Source: Entomomonas sp.
GTDB lineage: Bacteria > Pseudomonadota > Gammaproteobacteria > Pseudomonadales > Pseudomonadaceae
Direction: 5' to 3'
Length of the DNA stretch: 37,442 bases
Assembly: GCA_040391985.1 (NCBI GenBank)
Contig: JBEBWU010000001.1
Coordinates: 1 to 37,442 of the forward strand
Positions 885 through 37,442 of the stretch are shown here, one piece after another. The notes under the pieces were generated by a model. It saw only the letters and a program-made list of their open reading frames with translations, was not told the origin of the DNA and did no database searches. The position numbers and the translations under genes were made by a program. Each line of letters opens with the position of its first letter. Within the stretch, counting starts at the first letter, position 1.

Positions 885-961
885 AGGCATATAGCTCAGC
901 TGGTTAGAGCATCACCTTGACATGGTGGGGGTCGTTGGTTCGAGTCCAATTATGCCTACCA
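885..961 (+). tRNA. tRNA-Val (anticodon GAC), integration target
   Basis: Acceptor stem AGGCATA/TATGCCT, D arm GCTC-AGCTGGTTA-GAGC, anticodon arm TCACC-TTGACAT-GGTGG, T loop GTTCGAGT, encoded ACCA end; 77 nt. Confidence 0.97.
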
Positions 962-1002
962 AATTAAGATTTAATAAATCTCTTGAAACCCCTATAAAGT
1001 CC
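948..1002 (+). repeat. attL core direct repeat (at least 55 bp)
   Basis: AATTATGCCTACCAAATTAAGATTTAATAAATCTCTTGAAACCCCTATAAAGTCC is identical to 37388-37442. Confidence 0.95.
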
Positions 1003-13352: not shown

Positions 13353-13610
13353 ATGTCTAGGCGTTGCGTTACTGATTGGTTTAGGGTGCTTGTTGATCTT
13401 GACTATTTGGGTGTTAAGACTACCGCTGTCTCAAGAATGATAAACGTACCTAGATCGACGGTGGCAGAATGGAAATATGGTAGAGAGCCAAAACATTCAG
13501 ACGGTGAGAAGTTAATAGTTTTGTGGTGTCATTCAATGAAAAAATCAAGAAAGCAATTACCTGTAATTGATCGTAAATCATCTAAAGCATTATTAAGCAA
13601 TCATTTCTAA
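13353..13610 (+). CDS. HTH protein, candidate late-gene activator
   Basis: DWFRVLVDL...VSRMINVPRSTVAEWK.G.EPKHSDGEKLIVLW HTH; last gene before the virion operon. Confidence 0.7.
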   Translation: MSRRCVTDWFRVLVDLDYLGVKTTAVSRMINVPRSTVAEWKYGREPKHSDGEKLIVLWCHSMKKSRKQLPVIDRKSSKALLSNHF

Positions 13611-13639: not shown

Positions 13640-13673
13640 TGTCGGGAAGTCGTCAGTAATTTTCTATTACCTT
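13640..13673 (+). promoter_or_regulatory. Putative late promoter 1
   Basis: TGTCGGGAAGTCGTCA, with TACCTT 28 nt after the motif start; motif recurs at 17267 and 34168. Confidence 0.65.
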
Positions 13674-16038: not shown

Positions 16039-16276
16039 AAATAGACCAGCAAACGAATTTGATTATCAAGACTTATTTGAAAAGAATCCTTATGGTCAAA
16101 TAATTTTAGATGATTTAGTAAGTCGCTTTTCATTACCCCCATCTTTTGACGAACATAATGCAGAAATCAAAACCTACTACCGAGCAGGTCAACGTAGCGT
16201 TATCGATTTTATCCTTTCCCGTATTAACAGAGCCAACGGAGTACAAGACAATGACCCCAAACAAGAGAATGATTAA
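16031..16276 (+). CDS. Small conserved post-portal protein (Bbp19-like)
   Basis: YQDLFE..PYGQIILDDL..RF...TYYRAGQRSVIDFI. Confidence 0.75.
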   Translation: MPKNRPANEFDYQDLFEKNPYGQIILDDLVSRFSLPPSFDEHNAEIKTYYRAGQRSVIDFILSRINRANGVQDNDPKQEND

Positions 16277-17138
16277 TTTATTACCTTTCTTAATGAATGA
16301 AGCCGACGAACATGGCGGTGATGGTGGCGGTGGCAATCCACCACCAGTAGTCGAAACAACTAGATCAATCCTAGAGGGTGGTGGAGTAGATAGCAGCACA
16401 GACGCACCACCAGCTGATAAGGCAGATAGTAAACCTGTTGATGATGAAGAACAGGGTAACTATGGTTTTATGCCTGATAAATTCAAAGTACTTGATGCTG
16501 ATGGTGAGATCAATTTAGAGCTATCAGCTAAGAAAATGGCCGATAGCTATGCTGGCTTATCTAAACGTTTAGGTACTGGTGACGTTCCACCTAAGTCAAT
16601 TGATGAATACGATGTAAAAATTGAATCTGATTTTTTACAGTTTGACGAATTTAAAAAAGACGTAGAGAACAAGGCATTTTTAGAAAGAGCCAAAGAACAT
16701 GGTCTAACTTCTTCACAGCTGCAATTTGTATTAGGTGAATATGCGCGTGTATTGCCAGAATCATTTAAGAAATATGAGGGCCTAACAGTTGAACAGGCAA
16801 GGGAAGAACTAAGCCAATCATGGCAAAATGAAGATGAATACAAAGCCAACTTAAAAGATGCCTTTACTGCTTTCAACAAATACGCAGCACCAGAAGATAA
16901 GGAACGCATGGGTGAGATAGGTAACAACCCAGTTGTCATTAGAATGCTGGCTAATATGGGGAAAAACCTTAGAGAAGATGCACCACCTGTTAAAGCAGTA
17001 GTATCACGTGATGATATACAGCAATTAATGCGTAGTGAATCATATAGCAACCCTAATCATCCAGACTACAAAGCCACACATCGCAAAGTTAAGGCTTACT
17101 ATCAACAAGCTTACGGCAATACTCCCGTTATTAGTTAA
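16269..17138 (+). CDS. Capsid scaffolding protein
   Basis: Acidic protein between portal and capsid with HGLTSSQ, IGNNPVVIRML and YSNPNHPDY. Likely start at 16269 (the ORF track extends to 16146). Confidence 0.82.
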   Translation: MINLLPFLMNEADEHGGDGGGGNPPPVVETTRSILEGGGVDSSTDAPPADKADSKPVDDEEQGNYGFMPDKFKVLDADGEINLELSAKKMADSYAGLSKRLGTGDVPPKSIDEYDVKIESDFLQFDEFKKDVENKAFLERAKEHGLTSSQLQFVLGEYARVLPESFKKYEGLTVEQAREELSQSWQNEDEYKANLKDAFTAFNKYAAPEDKERMGEIGNNPVVIRMLANMGKNLREDAPPVKAVVSRDDIQQLMRSESYSNPNHPDYKATHRKVKAYYQQAYGNTPVIS

Positions 17139-17160
17139 GTGATCAAGTACAACAGATAAA

Positions 17161-17219
17161 ACACAATATATAGTATTTATTATTCATGGTACCTAGAAAT
17201 TAAACACAATATATAGTGT
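17161..17219. promoter_or_regulatory. Tandem NrdR-box-like sites
   Basis: ACACAATATATAGTAT (17161-17176) and ACACAATATATAGTGT (17204-17219), 43 bp apart; match the NrdR consensus acaCwAtATaTwGtgt. Confidence 0.75.
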
Positions 17220-17225
17220 GATCAG

Positions 17226-17251
17226 AAACCGCCAACTAAGGCGGTTTTTTT
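17226..17251 (+). terminator. Intrinsic terminator between scaffold and capsid genes
   Basis: AAACCGCC-AACTAA-GGCGGTTT followed by a T run. Confidence 0.88.
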
Positions 17252-17266
17252 ATGGCTATAACCGAA

Positions 17267-17300
17267 TGTCGGGAAGTCGGAAGAATAAACATGTTAAAAC
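17267..17300 (+). promoter_or_regulatory. Putative late promoter 2 (capsid)
   Basis: TGTCGGGAAGTCGGAA, with TAAAAC 28 nt after the motif start, just past the terminator. Confidence 0.65.
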
Positions 17301-17443
17301 ACTACAAACAGCCCCGTTTATTGGCGCATGGGATAACTGGTCTAGCCCGTCAACCACAGCCCGAAAGGTTGATGATCTAGCGGCCTGTAGTACAGATAAC
17401 CGCAAAAGCAAGGGTAATTTATTGTTTTTAAAGGTTATTTATT

Positions 17444-18346
17444 ATGTCACAAGATTTCGCTACTAATGAAGCTACGCTAACCGCTGCCTTTGTGCAGCAA
17501 TTCCATGACACTTATGACCTCGCAGCACAACAAAATGAATCGCGTTTAGTTGCTGCTGTTGAAAGTCGAGGCGATGTAGAGGGGGCATCATTTACTATTA
17601 ATGATATGGCTGCTGTTGAAATGGAAAAAACTACCTCACGTTTCCAAGATACTAAGTGGAGTTTGCCAGAAGTAGGTACACGTATCGCTTTTATGGAAGA
17701 TTTTGATTTACATATTCCTATTGAGCCACGTGATCTCTACAAGTTAAAAGCAGAGCCACAAAATGCTTACATTAAGCAAATGATTTCAGCTAATAATCGT
17801 TGTAAAGACCGCATTGTTTACCGCGCTTTAATAGATGCAGTCATGCGTAAAACAGAGAACAACGCAACACCTGCGCCTGTTTCTTTACCTGCAAGCCAAA
17901 TTATTTTAGATGGTGGTGCAAATATCACTAAAGCCAAGCTAACTAAAGCTAAAGCACTTTTCCGTAAAAATGAGTGTGACGAAAAAAATGGCGAACAGCT
18001 ATTTATTGCTTATAACGCGGACATGTTAGAAACCATTTTGAACGATACCACTTTAACCAGTGCTGACTTCTTAAAGGTGGAAATGCTACAAGATGGTGCG
18101 GTAGCTACTAACTGGTTAGGCTTCACATGGATTCCATACGAAGCATTGGATTTAGATACTGATGTTTATACTACGGTGGCATGGTGTAAATCTGCCGCAC
18201 ACTTTGGCACTGGTATTGCTGGAAATTCTGTAGATATTGGTAAACGTCGTGATAAAAACAACACGATTCAAATTTCTTTATCTTCTGCATACGGTGGTGG
18301 CCGTGCTAATGAGCAGAAAGTAGTTGGTGTTAAATTCAAGGTTTAA
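17444..18346 (+). CDS. Major capsid protein
   Basis: TAAFVQQFHD..LAAQQNESRL, LNDTTLTSADF, NWLGFTWIPYE; 300 aa, after the scaffold, followed by a terminator. Confidence 0.9.
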   Translation: MSQDFATNEATLTAAFVQQFHDTYDLAAQQNESRLVAAVESRGDVEGASFTINDMAAVEMEKTTSRFQDTKWSLPEVGTRIAFMEDFDLHIPIEPRDLYKLKAEPQNAYIKQMISANNRCKDRIVYRALIDAVMRKTENNATPAPVSLPASQIILDGGANITKAKLTKAKALFRKNECDEKNGEQLFIAYNADMLETILNDTTLTSADFLKVEMLQDGAVATNWLGFTWIPYEALDLDTDVYTTVAWCKSAAHFGTGIAGNSVDIGKRRDKNNTIQISLSSAYGGGRANEQKVVGVKFKV

Positions 18347-30300: not shown

Positions 30301-32293
30301 CAGTACCGTTAAGGAGGCGGCCAGAGTTAAACCACTGTCTAAAAGTAGCCGTACAAACACAGAAGTGTTTAAAGACATGGGTAGCAAAATAGATGCCTCG
30401 CTAATCCGTATGGAACACTTAATTAGCAACCTAGATCGTGGTGATGTTGACGGGATTTTTCATCAAGTATTTTGGAATCCTTTAGCTGATGCACAAGCCA
30501 ATGAAAAAGCCATGTTTAAGGCTGATATGCTGGATATTATGCAAAAGGCTGATGTATTAGAGGGCCTTAATGATACCCACTATATCAATTCATTAGGTCG
30601 CTCATTCGCTACCCGTGAATTGATAATGATCGCTTTAAATACAGGTAATGAATCCAATAAAGCAAAATTATTAAAAGGCGGTATAGATGGCTTACAACTA
30701 CAACCTGCACAGCTGGCCGATATACTTGCACCATTAACCAAAGATAAATGGGATTTTGTGCAAGAAGTATGGAACAAGTTTGATAATCGTTGGCCTGATA
30801 TTGCGGCCATGTATAAACGACTTTCGGGTGTAGAGCCACCAGCCATAGAAGCCACCCCAATCAATACCCAATACGGGGAATATAAAGGCGGTTATTTTCC
30901 TATTATTTACGACAGATCAAGACAAAATGCACCTGATGCGTTTCTTGGTGGTGAGCTATTTAATGGTGATTTTGAGGGTGCGCTACCTAGTAATGGCTTT
31001 ACTAATGCCCGTAACGACAACGTAACAGGCCCATTAAAACTAGAAATTGAATCCATTAGTCAACACATGATGATGCAGATTCACGACCTAACCCATAGAG
31101 AGGCCTTACAAAATGCTTACCGTTTAGCTAAAGACCGCGATATTAGAAACGCTTTAATTAAAAAGTTAGGCAGTGAGCAAGCCGATTTATTTATTAACTG
31201 GTTAAAAAATATTGCTAATGATGCTAACCCTGCTGGCGGTGGTGTAGGTAGTCGCTTAATTAATGCAGTAAGAAATAATACTAGCGTGGTTGGCTTGGGC
31301 TTTTCTACGACTACCATGTTGGCGCAAATTGGCGGTGTTGTACCTGTTATTCGTTATGCTGGTGCTAAAGACTTTGCAGGTGGCTTAATTCAATTAATGC
31401 AACACCCATTAGACACACCACGCTTTATTATGGAAAACTCGCCAGCCATGCGTGCCCGTTGGGATACAACGCAATCAAGAATAGAGGCGAGTTTTGACAG
31501 ACTCAAAGGTAAAAACGAATTTTTCAGACAGAAAGAACGGGTAGTTAGATTTGCTTTTGATCTACTCAATTATATTGATCGTTATGTAACTGGGGCTGGC
31601 TGGATGGCCGCCTACAATAGAGCCATAAGAGAGGGCAAAAGTACAGAGGTAGCCGTTCGTGCAGGTGATGCGGTTGTCAGAAAATCACAGGGCGGTTTTG
31701 GTGCGATGGATAGGGCCGCCATTCAATACGGTGACGATGGTAAAGTCATGGCCATGTTTACCATGTTCTATACACCATTTTCAGCATTCTATAATCAAGG
31801 CAGGGATTTACATTTTGAAGTCAGAAACGGCATAACCAGCAAGTCAAAAGCGGCCGCTATTATTTTAGCGACAGCGTTCTTTCAGGGTGTTATTGGTGAT
31901 CTGCTAACAGGTCAGGGGCCAGATGATGACGAAAATACCCTAGCATGGATGGGTAAAAGCACATTAGGCTTTGGTACGTCAGGCTTTCCTATTGTTCGTG
32001 ATGTGGTCAGTGCATGGACGGGTGGCCGTGTTTATTCCTTATCGCCATTAGCTCAGACCATTAACAAAGTGACCAGCCTACCAACTACCGTCAAAGGATT
32101 GGCAGAAGGTAAAGAGGGCAAAGGTAAGCAAGTAATTGAAGCTGGCGGTTTAGTTTTAGGTGTACCCGTTAAACCATTAACCCGACAAGGCGATGCTTTT
32201 TATCAAATGGCTACTGGTGAATATGACCCTAAAGATGCTGGCGGTTTTGTGAAAGCGTTAATTTATGGTGTACGTAAAAAGGATAAAGAGTAA
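24323..32293 (+). CDS. Giant internal virion / ejection protein (2656 aa), polyvalent type, with a zincin metallopeptidase motif
   Basis: T7 gp16 position; STFLHETGHFF...HEKFARGFEAYL; Gly-rich hydrophobic segments at both ends; central inserted domain. Confidence 0.85.
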   Translation: MNEFLDVNPDDLKTALANNSSTLTDEEQQLAKNSKYRSLVVEDIRAQRKQENQLLAAEQQKQADADYRNNLFPKFDTETERPIATIKKEEEQLRQETASQQFSEGVAEYGQALGPDYQQLITNQVARERVGRTFDLLAAENRTPEQWKELFDIAKITGAKPSFILRATGEDQAKINQLVKERSFKLADLDTPIVFDIFTDKRIHALASDSIQNMQVVEDRLSRQRLVTEQAKQARIQSNNLYDNFRYGQLQLETLLQAVSFWGMDKLDADPQRQSRRDWQLLSLAQQAEESPHDLRLGKFIEEYDNNGLGAALYYGLSNPTIGSSILAQALPSIGAGGPFGKGVTSIGGRLAQGRIANLAVREWAVKAGNVGGVGFFSTASMGYPVSLVQGFEKTGDIKQALSRAKTQTSIDSAFGFLSGTLPAPAMLTNRFSGRLGNILYVGTESTAQGIGSAGGAYYSAKAVGDEITGGEIFANFALGYITAPLDLSVASLSNGKNFDFTTRSNLETTRAVADEIKNSPIASRDPDTAKQVIARIKEQSDSPVQDVYLPVEEFNRYFQEQGIDPIALADQVTGKQGALEEALATGADLQIPLENYLVDIAARGHDAVFANELRTAPDAMNARELAEFDNTIKERAEDITSQINEAVQKGAKTLQDNRVYNDVYGQLVGINRDKATAEKEALIYGSLFNTLAERLNIDPMELYNRYSLQIKRNLPDILTQARNSDNLDLLINRLRSGDIPSETSARGKTLFQRIKELGGIRDEGGELANRDIDKGKKGKARITNNKTGKSLDDIASQLAREGYLFDQETNLADIAEMDKRYTGVDLVNILLDKIDAESRGELQYSPLTMNDDLFSIRQQLTELSDLVDRQGLDLNNLTNQQVKDLLLNDSQRYNQEDTKLSAIHNLDQSNLAYADNLGGLAVPSIGIVTRDKGAVAGFGDVTLIGTRNLADPRQVPAYSSDAYSPRFPREEFEPIKNAKRLESIVSDIEPEAIRTGDDRVVGSTWDYLQSGDFRENVFRWENSPAIKSLFLKEQGVEVKPAYKEPTFQTGLNRNEITKASKLNDDLSKIIEVDEYFSNNAEAFVNEKIKPLIEKSLDRRYSDRPELLSKFKEKLIKEDAYSLLQKIRGDIKKLDNLIGNKEIDTEATVKRIDSKLNKQKADFEQWVNNKLRAIYGEPFVKLGNKKVPFNLDNVVKAMTRGSVKGAEQTMGFGTGKAKAQTSTKFNSLKQMREAAKRYIESPAEYEKAVAEAEKVQDQYREVLSKFSKMTNIFDAFDDATQAMADIATRGNYSETAIKSILEKNYFDTAKLEQAIKSGEVKDFYKLAENAARSLLETPVPYFESKPQRAVGLDEFAGAVIPDNASKQTIDILKKNNIPYVKYKKGEAGSRENTVRQFTEQLSNKGLDTLFQKQNDQVRGFIDIAKDGSVRINLTENANLSTFLHETGHFFLNVIGDIEKVPQAGADVKEMASVIKKWLKADDLNSLTVAQHEKFARGFEAYLFEGKAPTIELQGAFSRFKAWLTQVYKIIKNLNVKLNDDVRRVFDRMLATDDAIEVAKAPYNELFTTAEQMGVTPEEFAVYRETAEKASVEAKDKLLSDSLKEIKRETESWWNDEKAKLKEQVTQEVNNQPVYRVQDYLRKGIQTDGVQGEPVKLNRDVLIQRYGKGIVKDLKGLTAKEGVNPESVSMMWGYSSSDEMVKALQSAPDRNALINAETDVRMREIYGDILNDGTMSAKAIHAFEDNANRAKVIRAELAAIEKLRKAAEQVSTIRERNDRAASRDALDAIPSNTLLRDVAQRTIGDTKLMNINPNLYLQASRKASREAVAYARNKDWYNVSLSKQKELINHFLYLEASKARQTEAKIFNYFNKFDKKATRERIGKAEGGHLEQIDALLADYEFKRVSNRAIARRKSLASYVAEQQAQGNIVAIDQAIIDNANVVNYRELTYEQLQALRDAVKNIETIASLKNKLISAQGKRDLQETKDALISQLNSTVKEAARVKPLSKSSRTNTEVFKDMGSKIDASLIRMEHLISNLDRGDVDGIFHQVFWNPLADAQANEKAMFKADMLDIMQKADVLEGLNDTHYINSLGRSFATRELIMIALNTGNESNKAKLLKGGIDGLQLQPAQLADILAPLTKDKWDFVQEVWNKFDNRWPDIAAMYKRLSGVEPPAIEATPINTQYGEYKGGYFPIIYDRSRQNAPDAFLGGELFNGDFEGALPSNGFTNARNDNVTGPLKLEIESISQHMMMQIHDLTHREALQNAYRLAKDRDIRNALIKKLGSEQADLFINWLKNIANDANPAGGGVGSRLINAVRNNTSVVGLGFSTTTMLAQIGGVVPVIRYAGAKDFAGGLIQLMQHPLDTPRFIMENSPAMRARWDTTQSRIEASFDRLKGKNEFFRQKERVVRFAFDLLNYIDRYVTGAGWMAAYNRAIREGKSTEVAVRAGDAVVRKSQGGFGAMDRAAIQYGDDGKVMAMFTMFYTPFSAFYNQGRDLHFEVRNGITSKSKAAAIILATAFFQGVIGDLLTGQGPDDDENTLAWMGKSTLGFGTSGFPIVRDVVSAWTGGRVYSLSPLAQTINKVTSLPTTVKGLAEGKEGKGKQVIEAGGLVLGVPVKPLTRQGDAFYQMATGEYDPKDAGGFVKALIYGVRKKDKE

Positions 32294-32631
32294 TGAATGA
32301 TAAACAGTTAAAAGAGCTTAAAAAATTATTAGATTACTCTTTTGAAGCGGTCAAGATAGATTGCGACGCTAGGAATTGGAATGGTCATGGTAAAAAACCC
32401 GAACAAATGACCAAAGAAGAAAGAGGGGGTAGATACTTTGATATGAAAAATGCGGATAAATCTATTTCTATCTATGCCAGATTAACCAATATTATTGATG
32501 CCCACGAAAAACCAGTACAAGGTAATACTAAACCAGATGATAGTTTAAAAGATGAAACCGCAGCAGTAACCAAAGAAGCAGCTAAACATTTAAAGCGGTT
32601 AGGTCTTGATGACAATGGCAAATACCATTAA
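32293..32631 (+). CDS. Probable terminase small subunit
   Basis: 112-aa gene directly upstream of and overlapping terL; assignment mainly positional. Confidence 0.6.
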   Translation: MNDKQLKELKKLLDYSFEAVKIDCDARNWNGHGKKPEQMTKEERGGRYFDMKNADKSISIYARLTNIIDAHEKPVQGNTKPDDSLKDETAAVTKEAAKHLKRLGLDDNGKYH

Positions 32632-34246
32632 AAAGAAAAAGCTATCACTGTTAGAGTTTTTTTTGATGTGGGCCAAGCGACAAGGTTGGCAAGTACCAGA
32701 CATTCATATTATTGCTTGTCACTGGTTAGAACATCGTGGAGATATAGCGGTATTGCGCTGTTTTCGTGGCTTTGGTAAAAGTACCATTTTAGCTATCTAC
32801 AATGCGTGGCGATTCTATAACGACCCCACTTATAGAATACTGCACCAATCTGAAACCGATGGAACAGCCTATAAAACTAGCCGTGATACTCAAAACGTAT
32901 TGCGTAAACACCCTTTAACTAGGCATTTACTACCACAGCGACAGGGTACAGTTGGCCAGTGGTGGGTAGATGGGGCAAAAGATAGCCGTAATGCGTCGAT
33001 GTTTTCCAGAGGTATATTATCTAATGTAACCTCAGCCCGTGCCGATGAAGTACAGAACGATGACGTAGAAGTGCCACGTAATACCCAAACAGAAGAAGCA
33101 CGGGAAAAAATGCGCGAGCGTTTAGATGAACAAACGCATATTTTAGTACCTGATGGGAAAACCTTATACGTAGGTACGCCACACACTTTCGATAGTCTCT
33201 ACGAACGCATTGAAGCAATGGGCGCGGATTGTCTTACTATTCCCATGTTTGCCCAAGAATACCGAATCAGTGTAGCCGGTGAAGAAAGCTATAAACTACC
33301 GTTTAAGGCTGAATATATTTTTTATGGTATTGGTAAAGGGGCGAAAGTATTAGAGGAAAATGTAGATTACCAGATCACAGAAGATAACACGCTAATCTTT
33401 AGCGAGCCACCTAAAGTCCTAATTGATTGCTATGCAGGTATTGCATGGCCTAATAGATTCACTATTAAAGAATTAGCAAGCCGTAGAAAGAAAACAGAAA
33501 CAATTAACAAATGGGATTCACAATATCAACTACATGCAAAACCAGTTAATGAAATTCGTTTAGACCCTGATAAATTAAAACGTTATAGCGATATACCAAA
33601 ACTTAAAACGGTTAATAAAACGGTTACCATGTGGCTAGGTAATAATCAGATCGTCGGGGCGGTGGCCTATTGGGATTGCTCACTTGGTAAAGTTAAAAGC
33701 GATGCTTCTGCATTAAGCCTAGTGTTAACCGATGCACAAGGACATTTATATTGGCAATTTGCAGAGGCCATGCTAGGCGAATTAGTAGAGTTTGGCGATG
33801 ACGATAAAGTCATTGGCGGACAGGTTAAGCAGGTTCGTGATCTTGTTCTTAAATACAATATTCCGTGTGTCGTGGTAGAAACTAACGGTGCTGGCGGTTT
33901 TGTGCCGCCTATTCTACGTAAGGCATTACAAGGTACTGGTTGCGCGGTAAGAGAGCAACACGTACTCACCAATAAACAAAGGCGTATTTTAGATGCCTTA
34001 GAGCCACCGTTAAAATCAGGTTTTCTACACGCCCACGATAATGTTTTTGATAGTCCTGTCATCGATCAAATGCGCTCATTTAATCCAGAAGCAACAAACG
34101 ACAAAGATGACTATGTAGATAGCGCAGCAGGTGCAATTCTACAAACGCCTGTACGCATTGCCAAAATTGTCGGGAACTCGGAAAGCAATCCAGATAATAA
34201 TTGGATACCTAACGGGGGAACTTATGAAGTACATACTGATTATTAG
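32615..34246 (+). CDS. terL: Terminase large subunit
   Basis: Walker A CFRGFGKST, Walker B QNDDVE, VGTPH, nuclease YWDCS / VETNGAG / DDYVDS. Start could also be 32606 or 32609. Confidence 0.93.
   Translation: MANTIKKKKLSLLEFFLMWAKRQGWQVPDIHIIACHWLEHRGDIAVLRCFRGFGKSTILAIYNAWRFYNDPTYRILHQSETDGTAYKTSRDTQNVLRKHPLTRHLLPQRQGTVGQWWVDGAKDSRNASMFSRGILSNVTSARADEVQNDDVEVPRNTQTEEAREKMRERLDEQTHILVPDGKTLYVGTPHTFDSLYERIEAMGADCLTIPMFAQEYRISVAGEESYKLPFKAEYIFYGIGKGAKVLEENVDYQITEDNTLIFSEPPKVLIDCYAGIAWPNRFTIKELASRRKKTETINKWDSQYQLHAKPVNEIRLDPDKLKRYSDIPKLKTVNKTVTMWLGNNQIVGAVAYWDCSLGKVKSDASALSLVLTDAQGHLYWQFAEAMLGELVEFGDDDKVIGGQVKQVRDLVLKYNIPCVVVETNGAGGFVPPILRKALQGTGCAVREQHVLTNKQRRILDALEPPLKSGFLHAHDNVFDSPVIDQMRSFNPEATNDKDDYVDSAAGAILQTPVRIAKIVGNSESNPDNNWIPNGGTYEVHTDY
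34168..34200 (+). promoter_or_regulatory. Putative late promoter 3 (tail fibre/lysis), inside the terL 3' end
   Basis: TGTCGGGAACTCGGAA, with TAATAA 27 nt after the motif start; 90 nt upstream of the fibre ATG. Confidence 0.55.
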
Positions 34247-34257
34247 AGGTTTAAGCC

Positions 34258-35520
34258 ATGACAGTCGAAGCAGCACCAAACTATACCGAATATCAAGCCG
34301 ATGGTATTGCTACTAGCTACACCATACCATTCAAGCTACTAGCTATACAGGATTTAACTGTTTATTTAGAGGGGCAACTAATAACATCAGGTTATAGTAT
34401 TGATGGAATTGGAAACCAACAGAGTCAAATTATTTTCGATGTAGCACCTAATGGTTACTTACTTTTACAGCGTTCTGTAGCTGTAGTAAGAGAAACCGAT
34501 TATCAAGAGAATGGTGATCTTAGAGCCGAAACCTTAAACAATGATTTTGATCGCCTTGTAATGATGATGCAAGGTTTTGACCAAGACAATACAAAATCAT
34601 TAAGAGTGTCAGACCCACAGGGTATTAATGCGCTACCTATAGCTCAAATTAGAGCTAATAAGATGCTCGCCTTTGATGAAAACGGACAGCCAACATTATT
34701 TATTGTTGAAGCTGGTTCAGCCGTTGACCTCGCTAAAGCATTACTAAATACCGATAATCCAGATAAAGGGGCTGGCATGGTAGGGTGCAATGAATTACTT
34801 GCTTACCCTGATAAAACCGTTGGCGATGCGATTAAAAAACTTAATCAGCGAATTGATAATTTTGATACGGGCGTCCCTGTTTTTTCTGTTATTTGGTGGC
34901 CATTAAGATCAAGTATTCCCAATGGTTTTATTGCTGGCGATGGTCAAGAGTTATTAATAGCTGATTATGCGAGGGCCTATCAAGGGATAGCTGATGGACA
35001 AGTACCAACTTGTACAGAAACAGATTGGCAAAATTCTTACAGTGCGCCAAACAATACCAATAAACGGGGTTGTTACGTTCTAAATTCAAGTGATGGTAAA
35101 TTCAGAATACCAGACTATAACGGTGTTAATACTGGATTTATACAAGCAACGGGCGCGTTTTTAAGAGGTGGTATTAATGATAATGAGGCTGGTGTTGGCC
35201 GTACTAATCAAATGCCAATGCACAACCATGAATCAATGGCCATACCTACAGCTACATTAAGCGCGAGCGGTGCTAACGATATTATGAATGATAATCCTGA
35301 TTATTGGGATACAAGCATTCAAACAGCTACAGGTAGATTTACGATTACTAAGCCTAATACAACAGTTGCAGGTTACAGAATTTCAACAGGTACGGCATTA
35401 ATTCCGACCTCTCTTGGCGGTAGTAGTGTATTGCCAGATAAGTATGATATTTCAAATGATAAACCAACAGAAACGTACCCTAATCATTATTCGGGAGTGT
35501 GGATAGTTAAGATTAAGTAA
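34258..35520 (+). CDS. Tail fibre (T7 gp17-like N-terminus, collar-like domain)
   Basis: YQADGIATSYTIPF...RETDYQENGDLRAETLNNDFDRL; collar IPNGFIAGDGQ...FRIPDYNG. Confidence 0.88.
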   Translation: MTVEAAPNYTEYQADGIATSYTIPFKLLAIQDLTVYLEGQLITSGYSIDGIGNQQSQIIFDVAPNGYLLLQRSVAVVRETDYQENGDLRAETLNNDFDRLVMMMQGFDQDNTKSLRVSDPQGINALPIAQIRANKMLAFDENGQPTLFIVEAGSAVDLAKALLNTDNPDKGAGMVGCNELLAYPDKTVGDAIKKLNQRIDNFDTGVPVFSVIWWPLRSSIPNGFIAGDGQELLIADYARAYQGIADGQVPTCTETDWQNSYSAPNNTNKRGCYVLNSSDGKFRIPDYNGVNTGFIQATGAFLRGGINDNEAGVGRTNQMPMHNHESMAIPTATLSASGANDIMNDNPDYWDTSIQTATGRFTITKPNTTVAGYRISTGTALIPTSLGGSSVLPDKYDISNDKPTETYPNHYSGVWIVKIK

Positions 35521-37387: not shown

Positions 37388-37442
37388 AATTATGCCTACC
37401 AAATTAAGATTTAATAAATCTCTTGAAACCCCTATAAAGTCC
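37388..37442 (+). repeat. attR core direct repeat (cut by the window end)
   Basis: Identical to 948-1002; includes the last 14 nt of the tRNA. Confidence 0.95.

Follow-up and report, generated by a model that had tools for sequence, protein, structure and literature searches.

The scaffold-capsid gap of a prophage without any ribonucleotide reductase gene carries two tandem boxes that very probably form a genuine operator of the host repressor NrdR. The best reading of this operator, to which we assign a probability of about 40%, is that of a non-coding decoy titrating host NrdR during phage replication rather than a switch on a phage promoter. The decoy is preferred since the copy is consensus-strong, stands off any promoter, lies behind a terminator, and occupies a sponge-gene slot. 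About 370 phage stretches with strictly phased pairs, compared with 4 for a control pattern and nearly all off nrd genes in the sample checked, point to phages that read or drain the dATP sensor of their hosts. New here are the off-promoter layout in the sponge slot, the conserved operator of a sister clade, and the comparison with phage SpSL1 as a control.

The NrdR-type operator and its host

The window, i.e., the whole stretch of 37,442 nucleotides that was analyzed, represents a complete prophage of about 36.4 kb between copies of a 55-bp repeat (Table 1). Its genes encode an integrase, a repressor, a cro-like protein, O-/P-like replication proteins, podovirus-type head and tail proteins, a terminase, and lysis proteins. 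Gene annotation bore out the preliminary description in that the prophage lacks nrd genes, so the boxes do not lie at the promoter of a ribonucleotide reductase operon. The terminase genes (window 32293-34246) are placed after the internal virion genes and not before the portal gene.

Both 16-mers were recovered with one and no mismatch to the consensus, respectively, as the preliminary description had reported, and the 43-bp separation given there holds from start to start. Each 16-bp box is partly palindromic, has an AT-rich core, and shows C4, A6, T11, and G13, the features described for NrdR sites in PMC13584703, and the 27-bp spacer falls within the ranges (14-17 or 24-27 bp) that place two boxes three or four helical turns apart, a spacing that NrdR accepts according to PMC12051234. 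In the affinity data of that study (Table 5), E. coli NrdR bound consensus boxes with a KD of 27 nM at a 27-bp spacer versus 82-91 nM at 15-16 bp, whereas the 27-bp spacer was bound poorly by the NrdRs of S. coelicolor (3.5 µM) and S. pneumoniae (3.2 µM). Within the host assembly (2.39 Mb scanned; 406 contigs, 70% complete), the two boxes are the sole matches with at most one mismatch, and the only other close pair is one of 31 bp on contig C383. It immediately precedes a gene whose product has its best N-terminal match in an anaerobic reductase model. A pair of such quality is expected about 3e-8 times per window from base composition.

An intact nrdR gene, the presence of which the preliminary description had made a prerequisite, was found in the host (TIGR00244, 231.6 bits, no stops). 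The encoded protein has D15 and R17 and is identical to E. coli NrdR (structure chain 9FXK; PMC12176259) at 101 of 149 positions (about 68%) in a colinear, gap-free alignment. The host encodes class I and class III reductases, and its class I nrdA is present, with the nrdA promoter missing from the 70%-complete assembly. The class I reductases of this host and of P. aeruginosa presumably fall under the same NCBIfam model type, and we assume a kinship with Pseudomonas. Comparison with the host nrd boxes, as proposed in the preliminary description, could be made for the nrdD-type pair, which is the weaker one (32.4 versus 40.4 bits for the window pair, the best in the genome); the scoring matrix was built from viral sites chosen by consensus, so that these scores favor consensus boxes. 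The intact repressor gene and the weaker host pair together give the identification as a host NrdR operator good support at the sequence level.

The recJ-nrdA intergenic region of four same-genus genomes contains box 1 or a one-mismatch version of it. This divergent region (L093, L094, L097, L098, and L102) has a pair in its center and, close to each of the two start codons, single boxes about 320 bp apart, a layout that suggests recJ co-regulation or looping. The capture of the window pair from a host nrd promoter was considered and dropped, because only box-length matches were obtained and an unrelated phage locus matched equally well, the host nrdA promoter being missing from the assembly.

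It is very unlikely that the pair is something other than a site for host NrdR, e.g., a chance palindrome that was locally duplicated or the site of a phage-encoded protein. The two boxes do have 16 identical bases in common, flanking A's included, and a single chance box that was subsequently duplicated is expected 0.006-0.013 times per window (about 0.01 per 37 kb). The similarity of the box flanks is not significant, however (P 0.08-0.12), which also led us to reject an ancient tandem duplication with boxes retained by selection. Of 137 viral spacings, 122 fall into the same phased class as that of the window pair; in three genomes of the genus, boxes with the exact sequence of box 1 precede nrdA; and a matrix scan of the window found the motif nowhere else in the prophage and no further strong box or pair. 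An RNA hairpin predicted between the boxes (z = -2.85) is a consequence of the palindromes and the terminator and was not taken as evidence; a search against Rfam found no family above its gathering score (best hit, 28.5 bits versus a threshold of 55, driven by the terminator). Among sequencing runs, none with RNA was listed, and the single contig obtained from a DNA run stops at 17021, ahead of the boxes, so that neither outcome bears on the pair.

Table 1. Positions of the operator, its surroundings, and the sister-clade counterpart
Feature	Position	Strand	Remarks
Left att repeat copy, 55 bp	948..1002	+	Overlaps 3' end of tRNA-Val(GAC) (885-961)
Small HTH gene	13353..13610	+	Directly upstream of first late element; weak HTH match
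Late-promoter element (predicted) before head operon	13642..13653	+	No NrdR box in 300 bp upstream
Scaffold-like gene	16146..17138	+	phrog_3742, phrog_458; stop codon 22 bp before box 1; scaffold role suggested by position
Non-coding cassette in scaffold-capsid accessory slot	17139..17224	.	Delimited by sequence and slot comparison
NrdR box 1	17161..17176	.	15/16 versus consensus; C4, A6, T11, G13 present (critical positions as in PMC13584703)
NrdR box 2	17204..17219	.	16/16 versus consensus; 27-bp spacer after box 1 (spacer tolerance as in PMC12051234, Table 5)
Intrinsic terminator-like hairpin, 7 T	17226..17251	+	Between boxes and capsid promoter; starts 7 bp past box 2
Predicted activator-dependent capsid late promoter	17269..17300	+	TCGGRA-N3-CGG (17269-17280) and -10-like hexamer (17295-17300); putative function
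Conserved capsid leader	17301..17443	+	Hairpins, each followed by GATA(A/C)C; no Rfam family at threshold
Major capsid gene	17444..18346	+	PF19821, phrog_3437
Late-promoter element (predicted) before tail-fibre gene	34170..34181	+	No NrdR box in 300 bp upstream
One-mismatch late-promoter element (predicted) before lysis genes	35491..35502	+	No strong box there
Right att repeat copy, 55 bp	37388..37442	+	Repeat search
Sister-clade pair and near-consensus sigma70 promoter	L310:5072-5155		Separated from the head genes by about 650 bp of conserved non-coding DNA
15 loci related to L310 with the same layout	L311-L313, L315-L320, L322, L324-L326, L328, L331		

The accessory slot and the relatives of the prophage

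The boxes lie in a cassette bracketed by a 7-bp direct repeat (17139-17145 and 17218-17224), which is suggestive only. In relatives of the prophage, the corresponding slot between the scaffold and capsid genes is a site of rapid exchange. Both genes are present at 140 loci; the gap is absent from 40 of these, comprises just a terminator and the leader in 34, and is filled in 66, with gap sizes ranging from none to 1.5 kb and cargo in both orientations. Of 100 slot open reading frames, 71 were scanned, leaving aside those that overlapped the leader, resembled shadow frames, or duplicated another locus. Genes of the Acb2 (11 proteins), Tad2 (8), or PF13876/Acb4 (25) families were found in 40 of the 66 filled slots, counts that are not independent since many loci are close kin. 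The slot proteins match solved Acb2-type and Tad2 chains and, weakly, Acb4 chains; p26 and Vs.4 are here taken to be Acb2. PF13876 is the Acb4 family (bioRxiv 10.1101/2024.12.30.630793). The slot of L005-L075, L248, L278, L279, and L304 is an anti-defence hotspot with Acb2-, Tad2-, and Acb4-family genes.

None of these relatives has the operator. Neither a pair nor a strong single box was present in 142 capsid-related loci (80 from IMG/VR, 40 from metagenomes, and 22 from genomes), in 13 stretches around seven capsids of same-genus prophages (two of them shortened by contig ends), or in 40 portal-related loci, and the closest relatives that cover the region share only about 60-77% identity in capsid or portal. 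Maintenance of the pair by selection in related phages was accordingly not observed (0/142, 0/13, and 0/40 loci). The best score in the slot of relatives, with or without cargo, was 9.7 bits in 140 loci.

The lability of the slot raises the question of a relic, i.e., an operator that was left behind by deletion of the promoter and reading frame of an accessory gene under NrdR control and that would still bind NrdR without a selected purpose. We regard this as unlikely on its own, and it comes close to the decoy in weight since the slot turns over fast and operators before defence-type genes exist, e.g., before a CBASS operon of the same genus (L092) and, with a 43-bp spacing as in the window, before an Abi-alpha gene (L114). 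The capture of two phased boxes should also be easier than their stepwise evolution, and the -35 hexamer of a sister clade (see below) starts 6-7 bp past its second box, about where the terminator of the window starts. Against a relic, the cassette contains no open reading frame of at least 60 amino acids and no remnant longer than a 5-codon frame, and no relative has a box in the slot, be it with cargo or without. As the boxes are nearer to the consensus than the host nrdD pair, a relic would furthermore require a very recent loss or continued selection.

Phased pairs in other phages and the possible gating of late genes

A survey of IMG/VR for a strict tandem pattern with spacings of 20-50 bp matched 120 loci in the 21 of 64 parts scanned, from which the total of about 370 is estimated, whereas a complemented control pattern gave 4 matches in the collection, corresponding to an enrichment of the phased boxes of about 90-fold. 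Of 137 viral spacings, 102 measured 30-33 bp and 20 measured 41-43 bp. An nrd gene was found within 3 kb of the pair at only 3 of the 80 loci fetched with flanks; the orphan paired boxes that the preliminary description had proposed to look for are thus widespread in phages and mostly stand away from nrd genes. The neighbors of the pairs include terminase, portal, integrase, antirepressor, Mor-family, sigma-like, and Abi-alpha genes (116 of 155 flanking open reading frames scanned). Overall, the interpretation given in the preliminary description received partial support. The feature is not unique, phased boxes being widespread in phage contigs, and no paper on NrdR boxes at non-nrd phage loci was found in the literature searched.

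Among 105 distinct IMG/VR pairs, 35 overlap a sigma70-like promoter, a share that compares with 21% in shuffled sequences, and a terminator within 60 bp is missing from all 105, which makes the layout of the window unusual. A search for the same architecture elsewhere (a four-turn pair followed by GCGG) returned 4 matches, none of like layout.

Several of the surveyed pairs deserve mention in their own right. The pair at L114:2803-2861 (43-bp spacing) abuts a 12/12 promoter match before the Abi-alpha gene, and this operator possibly serves a dATP-sensing abortive infection. In a same-genus genome, a pair 32 bp apart (L092:1469-1516; G003:C1:422192-422239) covers divergent promoter-like sites, with a CBASS nucleotidyltransferase (SMODS) gene on one side and an HNH-SAVED effector gene on the other; a CBASS-type SMODS gene was not found in the host assembly of the window phage (70% complete). 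At L379:2500-2580, a pair brackets a TTGACA promoter between terminase-like and portal-like genes.

One match of the survey, L156, belongs to the same phage family as the window phage (portal 40% identical) and led to a sister clade in which 16 of 18 loci with enough upstream DNA have a 31-32-bp NrdR-type pair 830-950 bp before the portal gene. The promoter that faces the head genes has an invariant TTGACA and an extended -10 (TTGACA-17-TATA(G/T)T); the pair either overlaps this TTGACA or stops 6-7 bp short of it. The boxes vary (12 distinct pair sequences) with the phase kept, a pattern that, as far as sequences can tell, marks a repressor site under selection at a promoter. This putative operator provides the best evidence for gating in the family and is the leading candidate for late expression gated by NrdR. 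A forward terminator was not found between promoter and portal gene in L310, nor a class I or II reductase in 4 sister-clade records, nor a match to the region among named phages. A homologue of the window HTH gene was likewise not found in 4 sister-clade records, in a search run without a positive control. In the same clade, a conserved single strong box lies 75-98 bp after a tail tubular B-like gene (L314:10228, L325:10382, L326:10523, L329:6043, and L330:5540).

For the window itself, the preliminary description had raised the alternative that NrdR gates capsid transcription, in which case bound NrdR would tune head-gene expression in cis and heads would be timed by dATP status. To this end, NrdR could bend the DNA close to the site of the capsid activator, stop RNA polymerase where the portal-scaffold transcript ends, or repress a weak leftward promoter. 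We consider gating in the window improbable. The pattern in other phages speaks for it, with the sister-clade promoter facing the head genes and pairs that precede genes for Mor-family or sigma-like regulators, terminase, or portal, as do the distance of 63 bp (six turns) from center to center between box 2 and the activator element and the activation of topA by NrdR in P. aeruginosa (PMC4409342). The local geometry speaks against it: as the preliminary description had stated, the pair is followed by a terminator, a hairpin that the consensus terminator scanner did not list, and precedes the putative capsid promoter beyond it. From the end of box 2 it is 50 bp to the activator element and about 88 bp to the predicted transcription start, and the terminator lies between, so that the pair neither overlaps nor abuts the -35, -10, or start region of a regulated promoter. 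A stem similar to the terminator is also present in the box-less genus relative L088.

Over the boxes, promoter-like sequence is confined to one leftward 9/12 match, which overlaps box 2. It is a weak one, because the scan that contained it found 6 sites versus 6.2 expected and because a -10-like hexamer is inherent in every NrdR box; under a stricter promoter scan, no promoter overlapped the boxes. The TCGGRA-N3-CGG element is conserved upstream of the capsid gene in relatives and recurs before late gene blocks, and its copies are predicted to be activator-dependent late promoters, with the small HTH gene as a candidate for the late activator. Since there is no other strong box in the window, the other three late elements are devoid of boxes, which likewise argues against gating. 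In sum, the capsid claim fits poorly here, yet gating looks usual in other phages, and the sister clade is the cleaner case for late-gene gating.

The leader that follows the capsid promoter has two hairpins (window; L003-L090 and L272-L288). In a rough alignment, 5 of the 6 predicted pairs show double-sided changes, and this structured leader might possibly be a translational operator.

Proposed titration of the host repressor

According to the decoy reading, the lysogen would have a single extra operator with little effect. After induction, tens to hundreds of phage copies would each bind one dATP/ATP-loaded NrdR tetramer, NrdR would be drawn off the weaker host nrd operators, and dNTP synthesis would rise and feed the host-dependent (O/P-type) replication of the phage. 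The benefit should be largest when dATP stays high and NrdR would otherwise remain bound, e.g., when another dNTP is limiting. If NrdR binding is real, some titration during replication is to be expected on physical grounds. The range is illustrated by a toy model in which the KDs are those published for E. coli and the repressor numbers are assumed: with 100 active tetramers, the unrepressed fraction of host operators rose from 0.33 to 0.60 at 100 phage copies, and with 300 tetramers, only from 0.14 to 0.19, i.e., with little effect. No copy-number figure for NrdR was found in a literature search.

Apart from the higher score of the window pair over the host nrdD-type pair, the decoy is favored by phage arrays of 6-9 phased pairs (L149 and L121), more than would be needed at one promoter. 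Circumstantial support comes from the slot context and the absence of a convincing promoter over the boxes. The boxless state of the other three late elements and the affinity of E. coli NrdR for the 27-bp spacer also speak for the decoy. Against it, the boxes are not conserved in relatives and the architecture is atypical of the 105 IMG/VR pairs; the sister-clade operator abuts a promoter instead. In lytic infection by the temperate phage SpSL1, the NrdR regulon comprised the most induced host genes (PMC6755750), and our scan of the SpSL1 genome found no phased box pair (best single site, 12.8 bits, inside a gene). A decoy is therefore not needed for induction, which weakens the need for a sponge. 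The case of SpSL1 also suggests that NrdR occupancy falls during phage replication, as a gate would read.

The arrays are found in two related phages and comprise nine phased NrdR-type pairs at L121:2969-3440 and six at L149:2739-3320, in long intergenic regions with terminase-like genes downstream. They are strong sponge candidates.

NrdR has been described as almost specific for reductase operons. The operators of these operons (E. coli nrdAB, nrdHIEF, and nrdDG; S. pneumoniae, with 25-26-bp spacers), as presented in PMC12051234, PMC13584703, and PMC12176259, share with the window pair the 16-bp boxes, the C4/A6/T11/G13 positions, the whole helical turns, and an NrdR-encoding host. The window pair differs in that it resides on a prophage, without an nrd gene and off-promoter, and has a 27-bp spacer versus the usual 15-16. 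Boxes of phage nrd operons (nrdI/nrdE-type and nrdD/nrdG loci L157, L171, and L170) are likewise phage-borne pairs that match the host NrdR consensus, but they flank the phage's own reductase genes (the 3 of 80 loci mentioned above), of which the window phage has none. The topA gene of P. aeruginosa has an NrdR box outside an nrd operon as well; it is a single chromosomal box with a demonstrated activating effect (PMC4409342), whereas the window has a predicted pair on a phage.

With respect to sequestration, the Acb2, Tad2, and Acb4 sponge proteins occupy the same genomic slot in relatives and act by this principle, but they are proteins that bind immune nucleotides, whereas the window cassette is DNA predicted to bind a host repressor. 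Temperate phages also carry host LexA boxes on phage promoters, by which DNA damage is sensed; the window pair would resemble them as the operator of a host repressor on a phage and would sense or drain the dATP sensor. The datA locus and the multicopy lac operator are decoy or titration sites. Synthetic decoy sites for transcription factors have reportedly been described as well (PMC7826281). The likeness to the window pair is that binding sites in many copies would draw a regulator away from the sites it controls. Our literature search, mostly of open-access main texts, found neither a metabolic repressor with a natural decoy on a phage nor a paper on an NrdR decoy; supplementary site tables could list phage entries. 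The main texts of the recent NrdR-site papers PMC12051234, PMC13584703, and PMC12176259 do not contain the word "phage," and in PMC13670838, nrdR is merely named among transposon hits for phage resistance.

A more specific version of the decoy is doubtful: the cassette might be a selected, protein-free anti-defence module, a DNA sponge that would remove NrdR at high dATP, force reductase expression, and thereby blunt nucleotide-depletion immunity. It would then represent the decoy branch of a widespread use of NrdR by phages, the other branch of which gates late genes. If the decoy reading is true, a stretch of about 60 bp would take over part of what a phage-encoded reductase does, and non-coding cargo would have to be looked for in anti-defence hotspots along with genes.

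The gene cargo of the slot offers leads as well. Unannotated cargo, e.g., in L027, L014, L244, L246, L247, L084, and L090, comprises candidates for new anti-defence or defence genes. A 63-amino-acid slot protein at L284:9564-9755, from the same prophage as L088, has no Pfam or PDB match, and one Atlas neighbor cluster, with the Acb2/Tad1 hairpin family in 18% of its members, makes it a lead for an Acb2-like sponge.
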